A program made the position numbers and the translations under genes. Shown in pieces: positions 30,881-46,599 of a DNA stretch of 64,000 nucleotides (positions within the stretch are counted from its first letter, which is position 1; the number at the start of each line of letters is the position of its first letter). Where the stretch lies: positions 832,001-896,000 of the forward strand of contig CAXXDN010000001.1 of NCBI GenBank assembly GCA_963667465.2, written 5' to 3'. The notes under the pieces are model-generated. The model was not told the DNA's origin. It worked only from the letters and a program-made list of their open reading frames with translations, and searched no databases. This stretch comes from Dehalococcoidia bacterium. GTDB taxonomy: Bacteria > Chloroflexota > Dehalococcoidia > UBA2979.

Positions 30881-32104
30881 TCAAGCGGCGAGCTGTTCGC
30901 GGTCGTGGCGGTGCGCCCAGGCGGTGGCCTCGTCGTAGGGGCGACGTGCCTTCAGGCAGCCGTGGAGGTAGCCGACGAGGCGGTTGCCGAGAGCGCGCAG
31001 CGCCTGGTGGTGGAGGTCGCCCGCGGCGCGGCGGCGGTGGTAGAAGTCATGGCAGCCGGGGCTCGCCTGCAGCGAGCAGAGCGCCCAGCGGTCCACGGCG
31101 TCGGCGAGCCGGCGGTTGCGCACGAAGCGGGCGCGCACGCTGCGCTTGCGGCCCGATGCTACGGTGAGCGGCGAGGTGCCGGCGTAGTTCCTGCGGGACT
31201 TCGCCGACTCGTAGCGTTCGGGGTCGTCCCCGAACTCGCCGAGCACCCGGGCGCCGAGCACGACACCGAGACCGGGCAGGGAACGGTAGATTGCGGCGTC
31301 CGGGTGCTGCTCAAAATGGCTCGTGAGCGCGGCCTCGAGCTCCGTAAGCTGACGGTTGATCTCGCTGATCTGCGCGACCGCCGCGCGGGTGCTCGCGGCG
31401 AACGCCCGGCTCACGGCAGGCGGCGCCTCGAGTTGCGGGGAGCGCAGCGCGTCGCGCACCGCGGCGGCGCGCCGCTCGAGGTTGCGCTGACGTCCGCCGC
31501 GGCGCAGCGCCGAGCGGATCTTCGACGTGCTCAGGCGCGCCGCCTCGCGCGGCTCGCTCGCCCGCGCCAGCACGCCCAGGGCGTCGCCGTGCGCGAGGCT
31601 GGGGAAGGCCTGCAGGGCAGCCGGGAAATACTCCCTGAGGGCGTTGCGCAGCCGGTTGGTCTGGCGCACGCGGTCCCAGATCAGCTGCTGGTGGGCGCGG
31701 GCGAGGATGCGCACCGCGGCAGCCTCGTCGCTGTCGCCGGCCAGCGGACGGTGGTTGTGGCGGTCGGTGCGCACGAGGTCGGCGAGCAGCTTCGCGTCGG
31801 CGGCGTCGGACTTGGCGCCGCCCAGGTGGTGACGCTCACGGTAGCGCGCCGCCGAGCGGGGGTTGATCGCGTAGACGCGGTAGCCGGCCGCGAGCAGGGC
31901 CGTGACCCAGGGTCCGCGGTCGGTCTCGATGCCGACCACGACCGCGCCCGGGTCTGAGGCGTGCTCGGCAACCAGTTCGTGCAGCACGGCGACGCCCGCG
32001 ACGCCCTCGGGCAGCCGCCTGGCGGCGAGCCGTTCGCCGGCCTCGTTCATGAGCTGGACATCGTGGTGGTCTTCGGACCAGTCGTCACCGACGTAGAGGG
32101 TCAT
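30881..32104 (-). CDS. IS110 family DEDD recombinase/transposase
   Basis: YVGDDW, VGIE, KSDAADA (DEDD RuvC-like), SLPGLG..LG, YAGTSPLTVASG (catalytic Ser), ALRALGNRLV. Confidence 0.96.
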   Translation of the reverse strand: MTLYVGDDWSEDHHDVQLMNEAGERLAARRLPEGVAGVAVLHELVAEHASDPGAVVVGIETDRGPWVTALLAAGYRVYAINPRSAARYRERHHLGGAKSDAADAKLLADLVRTDRHNHRPLAGDSDEAAAVRILARAHQQLIWDRVRQTNRLRNALREYFPAALQAFPSLAHGDALGVLARASEPREAARLSTSKIRSALRRGGRQRNLERRAAAVRDALRSPQLEAPPAVSRAFAASTRAAVAQISEINRQLTELEAALTSHFEQHPDAAIYRSLPGLGVVLGARVLGEFGDDPERYESAKSRRNYAGTSPLTVASGRKRSVRARFVRNRRLADAVDRWALCSLQASPGCHDFYHRRRAAGDLHHQALRALGNRLVGYLHGCLKARRPYDEATAWAHRHDREQLAA

Positions 32105-40645: not shown

Positions 40646-41029
40646 TCAAAGCGCGAAGTAGAGCCTGAGCCACATCTCCAGGTCTTCAAGTTCCACAGCC
40701 TTCCCGCTTGCGAGCAGGAATGACCGCATGTTTGTGGTGAACCCCGGTCCGGTGAAGCACACGATGCCCTCAATTGGCCACGCGCTGATGTCCTCGATCG
40801 TGGCAGGGATCTTCTCCTCGGCCGTGCCCCGTGTTCCCTGCCACTTGCACTCGATGCCGAGCGAGCGCCTCAGCTCAGGCTCGGTGAGTACTACGTCGAT
40901 GTGGCGCTCGGCGCCCCAGATCCGGCGTCCGACCTTCACCTGTCTCCTGGCTTGCAGGCCAAGCGCTCGGCCGATGGCTGCGACGGCGGCCTCGAGGCTC
41001 TTTCCGCTTCGAGCGTCGGGTACGGCCAT
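40646..41029 (-). CDS. Small PD-(D/E)xK nuclease (restriction endonuclease-like)
   Basis: GKSLE, IDVVL, GIECKWQ..GTAEEK motifs; RBS GGGGGAAG. Confidence 0.8.
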   Translation of the reverse strand: MAVPDARSGKSLEAAVAAIGRALGLQARRQVKVGRRIWGAERHIDVVLTEPELRRSLGIECKWQGTRGTAEEKIPATIEDISAWPIEGIVCFTGPGFTTNMRSFLLASGKAVELEDLEMWLRLYFAL

Positions 41030-41039
41030 CGCTTCCCCC

Positions 41040-41162
41040 TCAGGCGTGCCGGATGCCGGTGTGCGCGGCGATCTCCGAGTCGAGCGTTGCGAGGTGCTCC
41101 GTCGTCAGCTCGTGGATGTCGGCGATGCCGACCGCGCGGACCCCTCCCGGTTGCGGGCGCAT
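41040..41162 (-). pseudogene. Possible fragment of an FMN-binding glutamate-synthase-like C-terminus
   Basis: RAVGIADIHELTTEHLATLDSEIAAHTGIRHA resembles such C-termini from memory; 40 aa only. Confidence 0.25.
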
Positions 41163-41249
41163 CGTAGCAATCGAGGACGTGAACGCGGCTCTCCTTACTC
41201 GCGCGGGGCGCTAGAATCGCCGTACTCCCCGCAGCTCCGAGGTGACCTC

Positions 41250-41774
41250 ATGGCGTGGTACGACCTGCTCGACTGCGAACTCGGGACGCTCTTCGTGGGC
41301 GGATCCGAGTCGGGCCTGCACCGCGTCAACTTCCTGCGCGGCGAGCGCGCGCTCGACGACGAGCTGCTGGCCCTCGAGGCCGAGACCGGCGAGGAGGCCG
41401 CGCGGGACGGCGAGGCGGCTCGTCCGGCCCTCGAGGCCCTCGCTGCCTACTTCGGCGGCCAGCCCGGCGCGTTCGACGACCCCGGCGCGCTGCCGCTCGC
41501 ACCGCACGGCACACCGTTCCAGCAGAGCGTCTGGGAGCAGCTGCGCGCCATCCCGGCAGGCGCCACGCGCTCCTACGGCGAGATCGCGGCTGCGGTTGGC
41601 AAGCCGGGCGCGGCGCGCGCCGTCGGAGGGGCCGTCGGCAGCAACCCGATCTCTTTGATCGTGCCCTGCCACCGCGTTGTCGCCTCGGACGGTTCGATCG
41701 GCGGCTTTGCCTCCGGGCTGGACCGCAAGCGCTGGCTCCTCGCGCACGAGGGCGTCGAGGGCTACGCCGCGTAG
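41250..41774 (+). CDS. ogt: Methylated-DNA-protein-cysteine S-methyltransferase
   Basis: GTPFQQSVW..LRAIPAG.T.SYG, AARAVGGAVGSNP, VPCHRV active site. Confidence 0.95.
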   Translation: MAWYDLLDCELGTLFVGGSESGLHRVNFLRGERALDDELLALEAETGEEAARDGEAARPALEALAAYFGGQPGAFDDPGALPLAPHGTPFQQSVWEQLRAIPAGATRSYGEIAAAVGKPGAARAVGGAVGSNPISLIVPCHRVVASDGSIGGFASGLDRKRWLLAHEGVEGYAA

Positions 41775-41807: not shown

Positions 41808-42539
41808 TCACGCGATCCCGAGGTGCTCCAGGATCTCCGGTAGCTGCTCGATCTCGATGTCCGGGCGCACGTCGTGGGTCGGCACCAGCGGGTTCGTACG
41901 CTGGGCGGTGTGCAGCCCGGCGCGCTGCGCGCCGAAGATGTCGTCCCACGGCCGGTCTCCGACAAAGAGCGCCCTCGCTGGGTCGCGCATGCCGATTGCG
42001 GCGAGGGCGGCCTTGAAGACGCTCGGGTGCGGCTTCATGTAGTCCAGCTCGCAGGTGTAGAGCCGCGCGTCCAGCAGCCCGTCCAGCCCGTCGCGGCGCA
42101 GGAAGCGCTCGTGGAAGCGCCGCGGCCAGTGCGTGTTGGAGAGCATCGCCGTGCGCAGCCCGTGAGCGCGCAGCGTCTCCAGCGTCGGCGCGGCCTCGGT
42201 GTCGTGCTCGATGTGCGGCGTCCAGGCGTTCAAATACGCCTCGGCGGCGGCTTCGAGCGCTGAGGAGGGCGCGCTCGCGCCGAGCCGCCCGTGCGCCTCC
42301 ACGACGATGCCGGCGAGCGCGCCGGCGTGTGGGTGCGGATGCTCGGTGCGCTGCCAGAACTCGCTCTCGACCGTGCCCAGCAGCTGAGTGATCGTTTCCG
42401 CGTCCTGCTCGGCGTGCGGCGCGAGCACCTCGGCGGCGGGCCCCCACAGCGACTTCGTACTCACCGCGGTCGCCCACGTGGAGAGCGTGCCGCCCCAGTC
42501 GAAGATCACCGCCTCGATGCCGGCGTCGCGCAGGGTCAC
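41808..42539 (-). CDS. HAD superfamily hydrolase
   Basis: VIFDWGGTL, LSNT, KPHP, FVGDRPWDDIFGA; GTG after GAGGAG. Confidence 0.92.
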   Translation of the reverse strand: MTLRDAGIEAVIFDWGGTLSTWATAVSTKSLWGPAAEVLAPHAEQDAETITQLLGTVESEFWQRTEHPHPHAGALAGIVVEAHGRLGASAPSSALEAAAEAYLNAWTPHIEHDTEAAPTLETLRAHGLRTAMLSNTHWPRRFHERFLRRDGLDGLLDARLYTCELDYMKPHPSVFKAALAAIGMRDPARALFVGDRPWDDIFGAQRAGLHTAQRTNPLVPTHDVRPDIEIEQLPEILEHLGIA

Positions 42540-42744
42540 TCGTCGCTCCTCGTCGCTGTCGGGCGCCCGCGCAGCATCGCACTGCGCGCGCCGTCGCTGT
42601 ACCCGGGGCGCGGATCGCCGCGCGCCTGGGCCCCGGTATGGCGCGAAGCGGCCATCCGCTGGCGCTCGCCCCTCTCCCGCGAGCAGGGCCACGCTGCGGG
42701 CGGATGACGGAGGCGCATTCCGGCGCGCCAGTCGTAGCGGAATC

Positions 42745-43004
42745 GGTCCTTGCGCCGGACGCACATCGGGCCTCCTCAGGAGGCCCGAATGGTTCTGTCT
42801 GCCCGGGATGCGCCGGGTTGGTCCCTGTGCCAGCTCTAGCCGGGGACGGGTACTGGGGCCGTCCCCGTGGTGTGGGACCTCCCGGCCTAGTGCGAAGCTG
42901 CTCTGCCCAAGGGTCTGCTCCTTACGGCTTACGCGCGCTCGGCGCTTCTGAGGAGAGTTCCGACCCAATCGGTCATCGGGTCTCCCTTCCTCGGTCCCGT
43001 CTCA
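42745..43004 (-). ncRNA. Candidate structured non-coding RNA or leader (family unassigned)
   Basis: Promoter directly upstream; several nested stems; perfect 10-bp hairpin at 42766-42788; composition differs from flanking CDSs; no credible long ORF. Confidence 0.55.
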
Positions 43005-43010
43005 AGAGTC

Positions 43011-43039
43011 ATCATGCAACTCCGCGTCCCCCCTTGCAA
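43011..43039 (-). promoter_or_regulatory. Sigma70-type promoter TTGCAA-N17-CATGAT
   Basis: Exact 17-nt spacer; points into the structured region. Confidence 0.55.
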
Positions 43040-43059
43040 CATTGTGAATGTGCGCGCAT

Positions 43060-44253
43060 TCACAAGGCTTCCGTGGGCCGGCGGAGGATGGAGCGCGTCT
43101 CGCGCAGCGCCTTGAGGACGTCGCGACGCTGCTGCACGAGCAGCACGGACGCGAGCACGAGATAGACGATCGCGATCACGATCCGCACCTCGGAGATCGG
43201 GATCACGAACTGGACCGCGAACAGGCCGATCAGCGCGCCCGCCTCCCAGCGGCTGAGGCTGAGACTGACGAGGATGGCGACGGCGAACAGCGACTGCGCA
43301 GCCGTGAGGAGGACTTCCTCGCTCTGGCGCCCGTCGAGCGGCAGCCCGCCCAGCGTGTCGCCCGAGATCGAGTACGCGACCGGCAGCCCGCCGAGCAGCA
43401 GCGTCCACTGGTTCACCTTCGAGGAAAGCAGCGCCGCCATGCCCATCACGGCGCGGCCCCGGAAGGCGAGGATGCCGGCCACCAGGAACTCGGGCGCCTC
43501 GGAGGCGAACGGTGCGAGCCACTGCACGAGCAGGAACTCGTCGATGCCGAGCTGCGTGCCGGTGTGGATCAGGCCCTCGGCGAAGGGCTCCGCCGCCGAG
43601 AGGATGACGGCCGCCGCGAAGACGAAGATGCAGGCGTTGAGCACGCGCCGCTGCCGTTTCGCGAGGTGGCCGATCCAGTACGCAGGGCCGACAAGATCGT
43701 GCTCCTCGCCCTCGTTGCGGGCGACTCCGTACACGTAGACGGCGAAGATCGCGAACATCACGACGGTGTCCACGAGGCTGATCGAGCCCTTGAAGGGCAG
43801 GATGAACGAGTAGAGCGTGGCCGCGCCGAGCGCGATCACGTCGAGGGAGTTCGCGGAGTTCAGCCGCAGTACCCGCCCTCGGGTGCGTAACCAGAAGATG
43901 AGGAACACCGCCGACCAGCCGACGCCAATCAGCAGCCGGTTCGCCCCGGTCATGTTCGCGACCGCAAAAGGCGCGAACTCGGGATCCTGACCCGCCTTCC
44001 AGGCGAAGGCGAGGTCGACGGCGTACTCGGGCAGCACGGCGATCAGGGCGATGAACGCGACGGCAAGGCCTTGCGAGATATCGACCTCGGCGGCCTCGGC
44101 GCCCCAGCTCAGGAGGAAGGCTGCGGCCACGATGCCGAGGCCGAACAGCAGCGTGTCGCTGACCGTGCCGAGGTGCGTGCCGCTGAGGCGCAGCGCGAGC
44201 GCTGGCAGACAGCACAGCGCCATGATGCCGATCAGCGTGACCGCGCTGCGCAT
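43060..44253 (-). CDS. Sodium:calcium exchanger (CaCA) family antiporter
   Basis: Many TM helices; two alpha repeats IAVLPEYAVD/ANMTGAN and APFASEAPEF/LLSSKVNQW. Confidence 0.88.
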   Translation of the reverse strand: MRSAVTLIGIMALCCLPALALRLSGTHLGTVSDTLLFGLGIVAAAFLLSWGAEAAEVDISQGLAVAFIALIAVLPEYAVDLAFAWKAGQDPEFAPFAVANMTGANRLLIGVGWSAVFLIFWLRTRGRVLRLNSANSLDVIALGAATLYSFILPFKGSISLVDTVVMFAIFAVYVYGVARNEGEEHDLVGPAYWIGHLAKRQRRVLNACIFVFAAAVILSAAEPFAEGLIHTGTQLGIDEFLLVQWLAPFASEAPEFLVAGILAFRGRAVMGMAALLSSKVNQWTLLLGGLPVAYSISGDTLGGLPLDGRQSEEVLLTAAQSLFAVAILVSLSLSRWEAGALIGLFAVQFVIPISEVRIVIAIVYLVLASVLLVQQRRDVLKALRETRSILRRPTEAL

Positions 44254-44946: not shown

Positions 44947-46599
44947 ATGTCGCACATGAATCGCAGTCTCCGGCTCAACGAGATCCCCAACGAACTCACA
45001 ACTGACGAGTTCTGGGGGTTGCTCGGCCGGGTTGAGCATGAGGCACTCGACTTCAAGCGCGGGGTCCCTGAGGACATTCTCGACACGATCCCGTGTATGG
45101 CGATGACCGACGGTGGTCTCATCGTCCACGGGGTCGACAAGGAACTCAATATCCTTGGTTGCCCGCTCTCGCAGAACACGTTTGACCGCATCACGCGCTT
45201 CGCTAATGAATGCAACGTCGTGGTCCGGATCCAGGCCATCCGGGTCGGCGCCTACGAGTTGACTGTGACAGAAGTCCCTGAAGTTCGCGGACGCATCGTG
45301 ACCTCACCGGAAGGGAGGCTCCTGAGGCGCGTTGGAGGCGACTGCCAACCTCTGCGTGGGGACATGCTCGCGCGGTTTGTCCGGGAACGTGAGGAGCGAT
45401 CCAGCGAGGAGGAGCCCGTTGCGTGTGGAGTGAGCGACTTCGACCTCTCGCGCGTGAATGAAGCGCTGTCCGCGAGCGGCAGGCCTGCTGTGTGGTGGGG
45501 CGGGATTCCGCGCGCACTCGCCGACTTGGGCGTTGCTCTCCCTGACGACGGACCTGCGGGGCCGAGTGTACTGAGAGCGGCCGTACCGCTGTTCGCCGTG
45601 GATCCCCGCAAATTCGTCCAAGGTGCGGTGGTGCAACTCGTGCGACGGGAAGGCGTGGGCCCGGGCCCGGGACCATCTGTCGATCGCCAGGAGTGCTCTG
45701 GTCCGCTGCTGGATGTCTTGGACTGCTGCCTGGGGTTCATTGGACGCCACACGAGGCAGTACGAGATTGTTACGGGTACGCGGCGCGAGGTGCTGCCCGA
45801 GTATCCGGACACGGTCATCCGCGAGGCAGTACTGAACGCGCTTGCGCACCGGGACTACGGGCTGCTGGGTGCGACAACGGACATCACGGTTTGGGACGAT
45901 CGCATAGAGGTCCACAGCCCGGGCCCTCTACCTGGCCACATCACCGTCGAGAACATGCGTGACGAGCACTACAGCCGCAACCGACGGCTGATGAGCGTCC
46001 TGAAGACGCTTGGCCTTGTCGAGGAGTATGGCGAGGGCGTGGATCGGATGTTCCGCGAAATGGAGGCGCGCCTCATGAGCCCGCCGGACATCCAGGCATC
46101 GTCCAGTTCCGTCACAGTGACCCTTCGGAACCGCTTTCTCGTCAGTGCGGCCGATCAAGCATGGATCGCGTTGCTTGCTGACTACCCGATGACGCCCGAT
46201 GAGCGGTTTGCGCTCGTGGAAGCCCGGAACAGTGGGTCGATCACCCGGCGACGGCTAAGAGAGCGGCTCCCGGAGGCCGACGCCGGGGAAGTGCTCGCTG
46301 GAGCGGTTGCAAAGGGACTGCTAGTGCGTACTGGACGGGGCGGCGGCACCCGCTATGTGTTGTCGGACGAGGTCGTGTTGCGCGCGGGCAGTGAAGGTAT
46401 GGAAGCGCAGCGCCGGCGTCGCCAGACTCTCCTCGACGAGATAGGTCGGCGCGGAAGCCTCTCAACTGCCGAGGGCGCAAGACTACTCGATGAAGACATG
46501 GCTTTCGTACGGCGGCTCCTGAGCGAGCTCGTCCGCGCTGGACTTGTGCGCGCCGAGGGCAATACAAGAGCGCGTCGCTATTACCCCTCTGCAGGCTAG
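44947..46599 (+). CDS. AlbA_2 (Schlafen-like) + HATPase-like + C-terminal HTH protein
   Basis: EHEALDFK..MAMTDGGLIVHGVD; REAVLNALAHRDY, IEVHSPG, SRN, EEYGEGVDRM; GGGTRY and GNTRARRY winged-HTH ends. Confidence 0.85.
   Translation: MSHMNRSLRLNEIPNELTTDEFWGLLGRVEHEALDFKRGVPEDILDTIPCMAMTDGGLIVHGVDKELNILGCPLSQNTFDRITRFANECNVVVRIQAIRVGAYELTVTEVPEVRGRIVTSPEGRLLRRVGGDCQPLRGDMLARFVREREERSSEEEPVACGVSDFDLSRVNEALSASGRPAVWWGGIPRALADLGVALPDDGPAGPSVLRAAVPLFAVDPRKFVQGAVVQLVRREGVGPGPGPSVDRQECSGPLLDVLDCCLGFIGRHTRQYEIVTGTRREVLPEYPDTVIREAVLNALAHRDYGLLGATTDITVWDDRIEVHSPGPLPGHITVENMRDEHYSRNRRLMSVLKTLGLVEEYGEGVDRMFREMEARLMSPPDIQASSSSVTVTLRNRFLVSAADQAWIALLADYPMTPDERFALVEARNSGSITRRRLRERLPEADAGEVLAGAVAKGLLVRTGRGGGTRYVLSDEVVLRAGSEGMEAQRRRRQTLLDEIGRRGSLSTAEGARLLDEDMAFVRRLLSELVRAGLVRAEGNTRARRYYPSAG

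Follow-up and report, generated by a model that had tools for sequence, protein, structure and literature searches.

What is encoded on the minus strand between the Na+/Ca2+ exchanger gene and the HAD hydrolase gene of this Dehalococcoidia genome? The locus lies in a window of 64,000 nucleotides (nt), positions 832,001 to 896,000 of contig CAXXDN010000001.1, in which all coordinates below are counted. An earlier reading of its letters (the original prediction) had proposed an unassigned, highly structured RNA with its own promoter, either a novel non-coding RNA or a regulatory leader. A conserved structured RNA unit does exist there. We consider that it may be a self-contained gene for an RNA of some 250 nt, from a family not described before and confined to one uncultured Dehalococcoidia genus, that would act in trans, with a near-invariant core as its contact surface and two mini open reading frames (mini-ORFs) possibly gating its fold; to this reading as a whole we give about even chances.

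The first part of the answer comes from the distribution of the unit among 99 genomes of the family, i.e., 19 of the host genus and 80 of its 20 other genera. The core motif (up to three mismatches allowed) occurs once per genome in 17 of the 19 genus genomes, in all of which it was reported as exact, and in none of the 80 genomes of the other genera. When a covariance model was made for the 5' half from the 20 homologous sequences described below, the same 17 came out as strong hits (E-values 6e-41 to 5e-24), and the model's only other hits, four at 17.5-22.2 bits (second sites in genomes G015 and G004, one site in G096 and one in G053), were taken as noise. Both genus genomes without a match (G005 and G016) are fragmented, and since the relevant contig of G005 begins about 90 nt before the HAD-proximal match, its RNA site is taken to be unassembled. 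When the 521-nt intergenic region was compared with 41 relatives by blastn, its first 310-353 nt matched at 84-96% identity in nine congeners, four further congeners matched at 67-69%, and nothing was found in the 22 other genera sampled; in its own genome the RNA is single-copy by the same method. A search for the exact core motif in one genome per species returned 17 loci, 15 of them in metagenome-assembled genomes of Dehalococcoidia/Chloroflexi, the other two (L055 and L059) being chance matches that share only the 22-28-nt motif (nine loci compared). Metagenomes held four loci with the exact motif, two of them identical, giving three further distinct sequences. Some of the sequencing runs that contain the stretch are labelled sponge metagenome, from which we draw no habitat claim. 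The 20 distinct sequences comprise a near lineage of 10, to which the genome studied here belongs, a far lineage of 9, and G006 alone.

Within this genome the unit is composed of the following features.

43039-42757, minus strand: promoter plus RNA unit, a promoter-like TTGCAA-N17-CATGAT followed by about 250 nt of folded RNA
43034..43039, minus strand: -35-like hexamer TTGCAA, identical in 20/20 sequences
43011..43016, minus strand: -10-like hexamer CATGAT, reading CATCAT in five far-lineage sequences
42757..43010, minus strand: conserved RNA unit of about 250 nt, supported by homologue alignments, fold z-score and covariance models, ends predicted
42950..42992, minus strand: first stem P1, GAGGAAGG/CUCUCCUC, around ACCCGAU/AUUGGGU
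within 42950..42992, minus strand: inner hairpin P1b, GACCCGAU/AUUGGGUC, enclosed by P1
42929..42976, minus strand: short ORF 1 (sORF1), 15 codons with the predicted peptide MTDWVGTLLRSAERA, 14 codons in the other lineages
42898..42922, minus strand: near-invariant core AGGAGC(R)GACCCUUGG(R)CAGAGCAG, 23 of 25 bases fixed
42887..42910, minus strand: mini-ORF2, UUG, six codons and UAG, 7 nt after AAGGAG
42812..42886, minus strand: three-way-junction domain, of the same topology in 20/20 single-sequence folds
42886-42881 / 42817-42812, minus strand: closing stem P5 of the three-way junction
42879-42874 / 42825-42820, minus strand: closing stem P5b of the three-way junction
42867-42841, minus strand: hairpin A (P6), a perfect 9-bp hairpin enclosed by CCGGG-GGUCCC / GGGACC-CCCGG
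about 42842-42829, minus strand: hairpin B (P7) of the three-way junction
42757..42804, minus strand: 3' element, P8 within P9, the latter being GGGCAGACA paired with the conserved tail UGUGCGUCC
42788-42766, minus strand: P8, a GC-rich hairpin of 10-11 bp without a U-tract
minus strand: repeated motif GGGCAGAGCAG and GGGCAGACAG, read in the sequence
42719..42759, minus strand: extra 8-bp hairpin UCCGGCGC-N25-GCGCCGGA, directly 3' of the conserved tail, only in a five-genome sub-lineage of the near lineage

The minus strand was read over 42300-43500. The hexamer pair, P1 around its inner pairing, the junction stem with its 9-bp hairpin and the repeated motif all lie on the minus strand where the original prediction had placed them, as do the 15-codon ORF and the 3' hairpin, which indeed lacks a U-tract. 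The edges of the unit are sharp: similarity across lineages starts at TTGCAA and stops after the tail GAUGUGYGUCC, with flanks that are unalignable between lineages, and only within the near lineage are five more bases conserved, to 42752. The extra hairpin may be the true, longer 3' end in its own sub-lineage. At the other end, the hexamers are separated by 17 nt (18 in one sequence), and the letters of this spacer vary across lineages. Conserved hexamers at a fixed spacing with varying spacer letters are the pattern expected of a working promoter, from which a putative transcription start would be expected at about 43005-43002. The putative promoter of the RNA draws its support from the hexamer pair being kept in all 20 sequences; a consensus promoter scan reported no site, because it demands agreement at 9 of the 12 consensus positions and the pair agrees at 8. 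Selection on the unit can be gauged against its upstream neighbour: within the near lineage the mean identity of the RNA is 0.87, compared with 0.787 at the four-fold degenerate sites of the exchanger gene and 0.888 over its whole coding sequence, and the RNA exceeds the four-fold sites in 44 of 45 (non-independent) near-lineage pairs. By these comparisons the RNA unit is under purifying selection.

The description as highly structured was borne out by folding, as the minimum free energy of a 266-nt stretch (-126 kcal/mol) lies below that of all 200 dinucleotide shuffles (-107.0 +/- 5.1 kcal/mol; z -3.71). Folded individually, the 3' halves of all 20 sequences adopt a common topology (P5, P5b, hairpin A, hairpin B, P8 and P9), in which the flanks of P8 pair to form P9 (GGCANACA with the tail) and hairpin A carries a nested additional hairpin in the far lineage. 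Helices are retained while their letters differ between lineages, e.g., P7 reads CCGGC/GCCGG in the near lineage, CAGC/GUUG or GCUG in the far lineage and CGGCA/UGCCG in G006, and P1b reads ACCCGAU/AUUGGGU in the near lineage and CUGAUCG/CGAUCAG in the far one. In 12 of the 20 sequences the loop of P8, read by eye, is a GNRA tetraloop (GUAA, GUGA or GCGA). Covariance models built from one lineage and then used to align the others recover 20/20 homologues, with standard pairs formed in 92.8% of cells in the 3' half and 92.1% in the 5' half, compared with 36-46% and 29-60%, respectively, when the partners are slid. The covariation score is 0.146 in the 3' half (shuffle mean 0.084) and 0.228 in the 5' half (shuffle mean 0.134), and none of 500 shuffles reaches the observed value in either. 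Among the helices, 1 and 2 of the 5' half (P1/P1b) are about 90% paired, and in the 3' element helix 6 is 100% paired with two covarying pairs and helix 5 is 87% paired.

Not every pairing that can be drawn in this genome survives the comparison. The GAAGC/GCUUC stem and its CC-GUAA-GG tetraloop, part of the original prediction, exist here and are not kept among relatives (in place of GCUUC, four of the 10 closest genomes have GGUUC, and the far lineage has other letters), so that comparison lends these pairings no support. A candidate helix P3 (CCG..AGG/CCUUGG) was rejected, as it has no covariation and three variants break its pairing. Long-range pairings (core CUUGGR/YCCNGG, and the tail with either GCGCGC or the 5' leader) are each allowed in some lineages and none in all, and the 3' tail has three competing candidate partners.

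Two mini-ORFs are embedded in this structure. The frame of sORF1 is open in 20/20 sequences, with GGAG or GGAGG 6-9 nt upstream, an ATG, GTG or TTG start and a TAA or TGA stop, and it is preserved across the 3-nt (one-codon) length difference between lineages; in this genome its start codon and a Shine-Dalgarno-like (SD-like) GGGAG are contained in the P1 region, as had been proposed. Mini-ORF2 lies inside invariant RNA and has the same start, length and stop in 20/20 sequences, the core containing AAGGAG, UUG 7 nt on and a fixed UAG seven codons later. Both SD-start pairs fall within predicted hairpins. Translation of the mini-ORFs is plausible, but inseparable from constraint at the RNA level.

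Could the unit be a known RNA that had escaped recognition? Rfam 15, run on the whole window at the gathering threshold, gave no match near the locus, and at E-values up to 10 the region 42400-43200 gave only chance-level hits (Erse, 16.3 bits vs a cut-off of 138; Guanidine-II, 14.5 vs 32; sX11, 13.2 vs 70), while seven homologous loci gave tRNAs only. This agrees with the earlier statement that the RNA could not be matched to RNase P, SRP, tmRNA, 6S or a familiar riboswitch; RNase P RNA, tmRNA and SRP RNA are each found above cut-off on contig 2 and none of them at this locus. A T-box, suggested by an AGA codon and UGGN beside a tRNA-Arg gene in the far lineage, was rejected with no T-box hit at E-values up to 10, and a CsrB-type sponge with no CsrA (PF02599) match in the genome (93.6% complete). 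Neither a confident Rfam hit nor an absence of conservation and covariation was found, two of the outcomes that the original prediction had held against itself, and of its two proposals that of a novel non-coding RNA has gained from the missing Rfam match, the purifying selection and the presence of the helices in three lineages, whereas that of a leader has come out weaker, given a downstream gene that varies and is convergent in 8 of 17 genomes. The sole above-threshold Rfam hit in the window lies elsewhere: 'Actinobacteria sRNA Ms_AS-4' (65.1 bits, 31199-31280, plus strand) is antisense within an IS110-family transposase ORF (30881-32104, minus strand; PF01548, PF02371), and what this Rfam family follows may be the coding sequence of IS110, not a small RNA of Actinobacteria.

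Whether the unit is a gene of its own or part of a neighbouring one is best judged from its surroundings, with Pfam assignments taken from one to three representatives per neighbour cluster (one each in the near lineage). The features flanking the RNA here, and the arrangements in the lineages, are as follows.

43060..44253, minus strand: Na+/Ca2+ exchanger gene, upstream, outside the RNA unit
43043..43064, minus strand: 22-nt palindrome TGTGAATG-N6-CATTCACA, overlapping the TGA stop of the exchanger gene (43062-43060)
41808..42539, minus strand: HAD-IA-type hydrolase gene, downstream, outside the RNA unit, with a GTG start at 42539
Near lineage (10 genomes), upstream: Na+/Ca2+ exchanger gene (Na_Ca_ex), same strand, 10/10
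Near lineage, downstream: HAD-IA gene on the same strand in two (G000 and G009), convergent ABC-2 membrane gene in five, convergent solute-binding (SBP) gene in three
Far lineage: tRNA-Arg about 110 nt upstream, same strand; oppB/oppC-like permease genes about 150 nt downstream, same strand
G006: divergent ABC ATPase gene upstream; the same oppB/oppC-like permease pair downstream

Both flanks change between lineages, whereas the promoter-like pair and the RNA travel as one unit. Across the 17 genomes the downstream gene is oppBC-like in seven, HAD in two and convergent in eight. The differing flanking genes, together with the convergent orientation of the next gene in eight genomes, favour a stand-alone RNA gene over a leader; furthermore, a purely cis-acting leader is unlikely because these eight genomes keep the RNA intact with a convergent gene beginning no further than about 20-30 nt from its end. 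In this genome the GTG of the HAD gene lies 213-218 nt past the conserved RNA end, in line with the roughly 200 nt first proposed, and its product is above cut-off for TIGR01509 and TIGR01549 (HAD-IA), with PF13419 and PF00702, and under cut-off for PF12710 (22.4 vs 27). The exchanger gene has orthologues in G015 (74% identity) and in G006 (68%), both distant from the RNA, and the best matches to oppB and oppC in the genome studied here, only 52% and 62% identical, are probably paralogues. The palindrome ends 3 nt before the -35 hexamer, is kept throughout the near lineage (10/10 sequences), is missing from the far lineage, and was found to be unique in the genome when searched for genome-wide as a possible regulon marker; it may be the terminator of the exchanger gene or an operator.

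Several further observations concern these neighbourhoods. The tRNA-Arg upstream of the far-lineage RNA has the anticodon TCT in seven loci (L011, 1883-1958; L013, 1876-1951; L015, 1259-1334; L028 and L029, 1713-1788; L063 and L065, 230-305) and GCG in L014 (1160-1337), where it is preceded by a tRNA-Leu. AGA, the codon for tRNA-Arg(TCT), is invariant in the RNA core, possibly by coincidence. Divergent from the exchanger gene is a 550-residue ORF (44947-46599, plus strand) with Schlafen/AlbA_2, HATPase_c_4 and weak HVO_A0114 domains; taken together with the IS110 copy and the changing set of genes that follow the RNA, this ORF suggests a rearrangement-prone region. Convergent with the HAD gene is an Ada-like O6-methylguanine DNA methyltransferase gene (40728-41774, plus strand; PF01035, PF02870).

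We postulate that the RNA would be transcribed on its own and act in trans, away from its neighbours, the 25-nt near-invariant core, weakly paired or unpaired, serving as a binding surface for a protein or RNA partner. Ribosomes would probably enter the two SD-led mini-ORFs (14-15 and 7 codons) and open P1 and the core, such that the RNA may be a translation-gated or dual-function riboregulator in which the act of translation, rather than the peptides, would matter.

A number of results weigh against this picture of a trans-acting, translation-gated RNA. The number of two-sided pair changes, 4/40 in the 3' half (shuffle mean 3.9) and 5/22 in the 5' half (shuffle mean 4.2), shows no excess over shuffles, and the alignments behind these counts were fitted to the model and hold only about three independent lineages; the structure, though well kept, is thus only lightly proven by covariation. 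In our own reading of the alignment the sORF peptides show no third-position excess of change. Consensus scans found neither a promoter nor a U-tract terminator at the locus, so that both RNA ends are inferred. Among the sequencing runs none recorded as RNA contains the locus, and the four runs compared with it consist of contigs from relatives, which do not bear on transcripts. Concerning possible partners, neither Hfq nor CsrA was found in the genome at its 93.6% completeness, and a blastn-short comparison of the RNA with its own genome gave matches of at most 16 nt, chance-sized and mostly in the GC-repeat part. Finally, 7 of the 17 genomes have same-strand oppBC-like genes about 150 nt downstream of the RNA, and this link outlasts a change of the upstream neighbour, which fits a cis role there.

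This last point carries the rival that survives best, a cis-regulatory leader (a new riboswitch or a uORF-dependent attenuator, i.e., one governed by an upstream ORF) whose folded domain would sense a signal, or the movement of ribosomes over the mini-ORFs, and whose 3' hairpin would control read-through into the oppB/oppC-like genes ancestrally and into the HAD gene here. The seven genomes in question are all those of the far lineage and G006, and since the oppBC link is constant in them, a cis role stays alive for the far-lineage arrangement; a same-strand HAD gene follows in G000 and G009, and the anatomy is riboswitch-like, with covarying stems around invariant joining regions and then a strong hairpin with alternatively pairing flanks. 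However, a leader should keep a constant position in a 5' untranslated region, and here the downstream genes come from unrelated families, the eight genomes with a convergent next gene retain the RNA at 82-96% identity, and no Rfam aptamer matches. An expression platform is equally hard to see, given 0 terminator-like sites in the terminator scan and a hairpin that has no U-tract and is separated from the next start codon by 150-215 nt of unconserved spacer. We therefore regard a leader as unlikely, if still deserving of attention.

The trans-acting RNA gene may also be imagined in a more specific form, a stand-alone translation-gated switch in which ribosomes on the mini-ORFs unfold P1 and the core and so toggle the junction domain and the alternative partners of the tail. 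Acting in trans, such a switch might signal translational or amino-acid status; in the older arrangement it might act in cis as well, on a peptide-permease operon next to tRNA-Arg. We hold this version to be quite improbable; if true, it would be a new class of regulator in the phylum.

Alternatively, the locus might be a small-protein gene, in which what matters is the peptide of sORF1 (14-15 residues), that of ORF2 (7 residues) or both, and the remainder is a structured untranslated region. Its SD, start and stop are kept in 20/20 sequences and its frame survives the one-codon length difference; in G004, moreover, the TTG start breaks a P1b pair and yet a start codon is retained. The peptides themselves are poorly conserved and differ widely (MTDWVGTLLRSAERA, VKSIRMFLGSAQRA and VIAIRPLPGSALRA), their common C-terminal SAxRA is encoded by bases invariant at all three codon positions, the variable sites show, as we read them, no concentration at third positions, the 170 nt of best conservation fall outside sORF1, and a 14-codon open frame is unremarkable at 70% G+C. 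A small-protein gene is thus very doubtful in our view.

A 6S- or Ms1-like RNA that binds, stores or blocks RNA polymerase, a role raised in the original prediction, is hardly credible. It would account for a gap, as the 6S model RF00013 found nothing in 42400-43200 or in the whole genome at E-values up to 10, nor, with stricter large-search filters, in the 99 genomes of the family, 48 of which are 90% complete or better, so that 6S is either absent from the family or too diverged for the Rfam model; the size is also within the Ms1 range and a HAD gene adjoins the RNA here. Ms1 genes, according to excerpts of PMC9130861, are described only from Actinobacteria, having been found across that group through a neighbouring HAD-IB hydrolase or 'phosphoserine phosphatase' gene, whereas this host belongs to Dehalococcoidia, the neighbour is of type HAD-IA and a HAD gene is adjacent in only 2 of 17 genomes. 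Nor do the folds (5' hairpin, three-way junction, 3' hairpin) resemble the long irregular rod of 6S and Ms1, closed by the 5' and 3' ends around a central bubble, and restriction to one genus would be odd for a polymerase regulator, because the 80 family genomes that lack this RNA give no 6S match either. Equally implausible is conserved DNA that is no RNA gene, such as protein-coding sequence of either strand, the remains of a mobile element or clustered protein-binding sites. The region is overlapped by several ORFs of 76-187 codons, has a variable neighbourhood and lies 11 kilobases from an IS110 transposase, but indels of 1, 2, 10 and 11 nt in the homologue alignment break every long frame and rule out a long coding sequence, none of the four overlapping ORFs scanned had a Pfam match, the unit is single-copy, its inverted repeats are internal hairpin arms with none at the ends, and compensatory changes maintain the helices.

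The unit is a clean candidate, with sharp edges, a conserved promoter pair, a fold common to three lineages and a level of selection that equals that on a protein gene. It provides a concrete target for metatranscriptomes of samples with this genus, and given its reach of one genus the gain would be modest unless the mini-ORF switch idea is true. In a literature search of partial coverage we found no description of small RNAs of Dehalococcoidia or of a 6S-type RNA in Chloroflexi, and the nearest points of comparison are found in other groups. With Ms1 (as described in excerpts of PMC9130861) and 6S (RF00013) it shares a size class, strong folding, a promoter of its own (here predicted) and, in this genome, a HAD-family neighbour, but it differs in phylum from Ms1, in having that neighbour, of type HAD-IA, in only 2/17 genomes, in lacking the rod and bubble, and in its failure to match the 6S model. 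A gene that is not Ms1 can thus resemble it through a neighbouring HAD hydrolase, which calls for caution in searches that rely on synteny by annotation. Lineage-restricted orphan structured RNAs are known in the raiA motif and OLE RNA, both in Rfam, which resemble this RNA in a conserved multi-stem fold, invariant joining regions and their own transcription signals (here predicted); the RNA described here, in contrast, has no Rfam match, a far narrower range (one genus, 17/19), SD-led mini-ORFs and no conserved gene partner, and is smaller than OLE. Among the dual-function small RNAs that carry a short ORF are SgrS/SgrT, RNAIII/hld and SR1/SR1P, and the trait of a conserved short ORF with SD and start codon is found here in both sORF1 and ORF2 (20/20 each). 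Like them, this is a stand-alone (predicted) unit of a few hundred nt, a structured body with an SD-led short ORF that is kept in relatives; unlike them, it has poorly conserved peptides of 14-15 and 7 residues, it bears no sequence or Rfam relation to them, and no Hfq was found in the genome. Some riboswitch or leader RNAs, such as SreA and EutX/Rli55, also act as free RNAs. Compared with these, our element has no known aptamer, no U-tract terminator and unrelated downstream genes, but it likewise has a same-strand gene after it in 9 of 17 genomes and stands alone in the rest, a distribution that fits an element working both ways.

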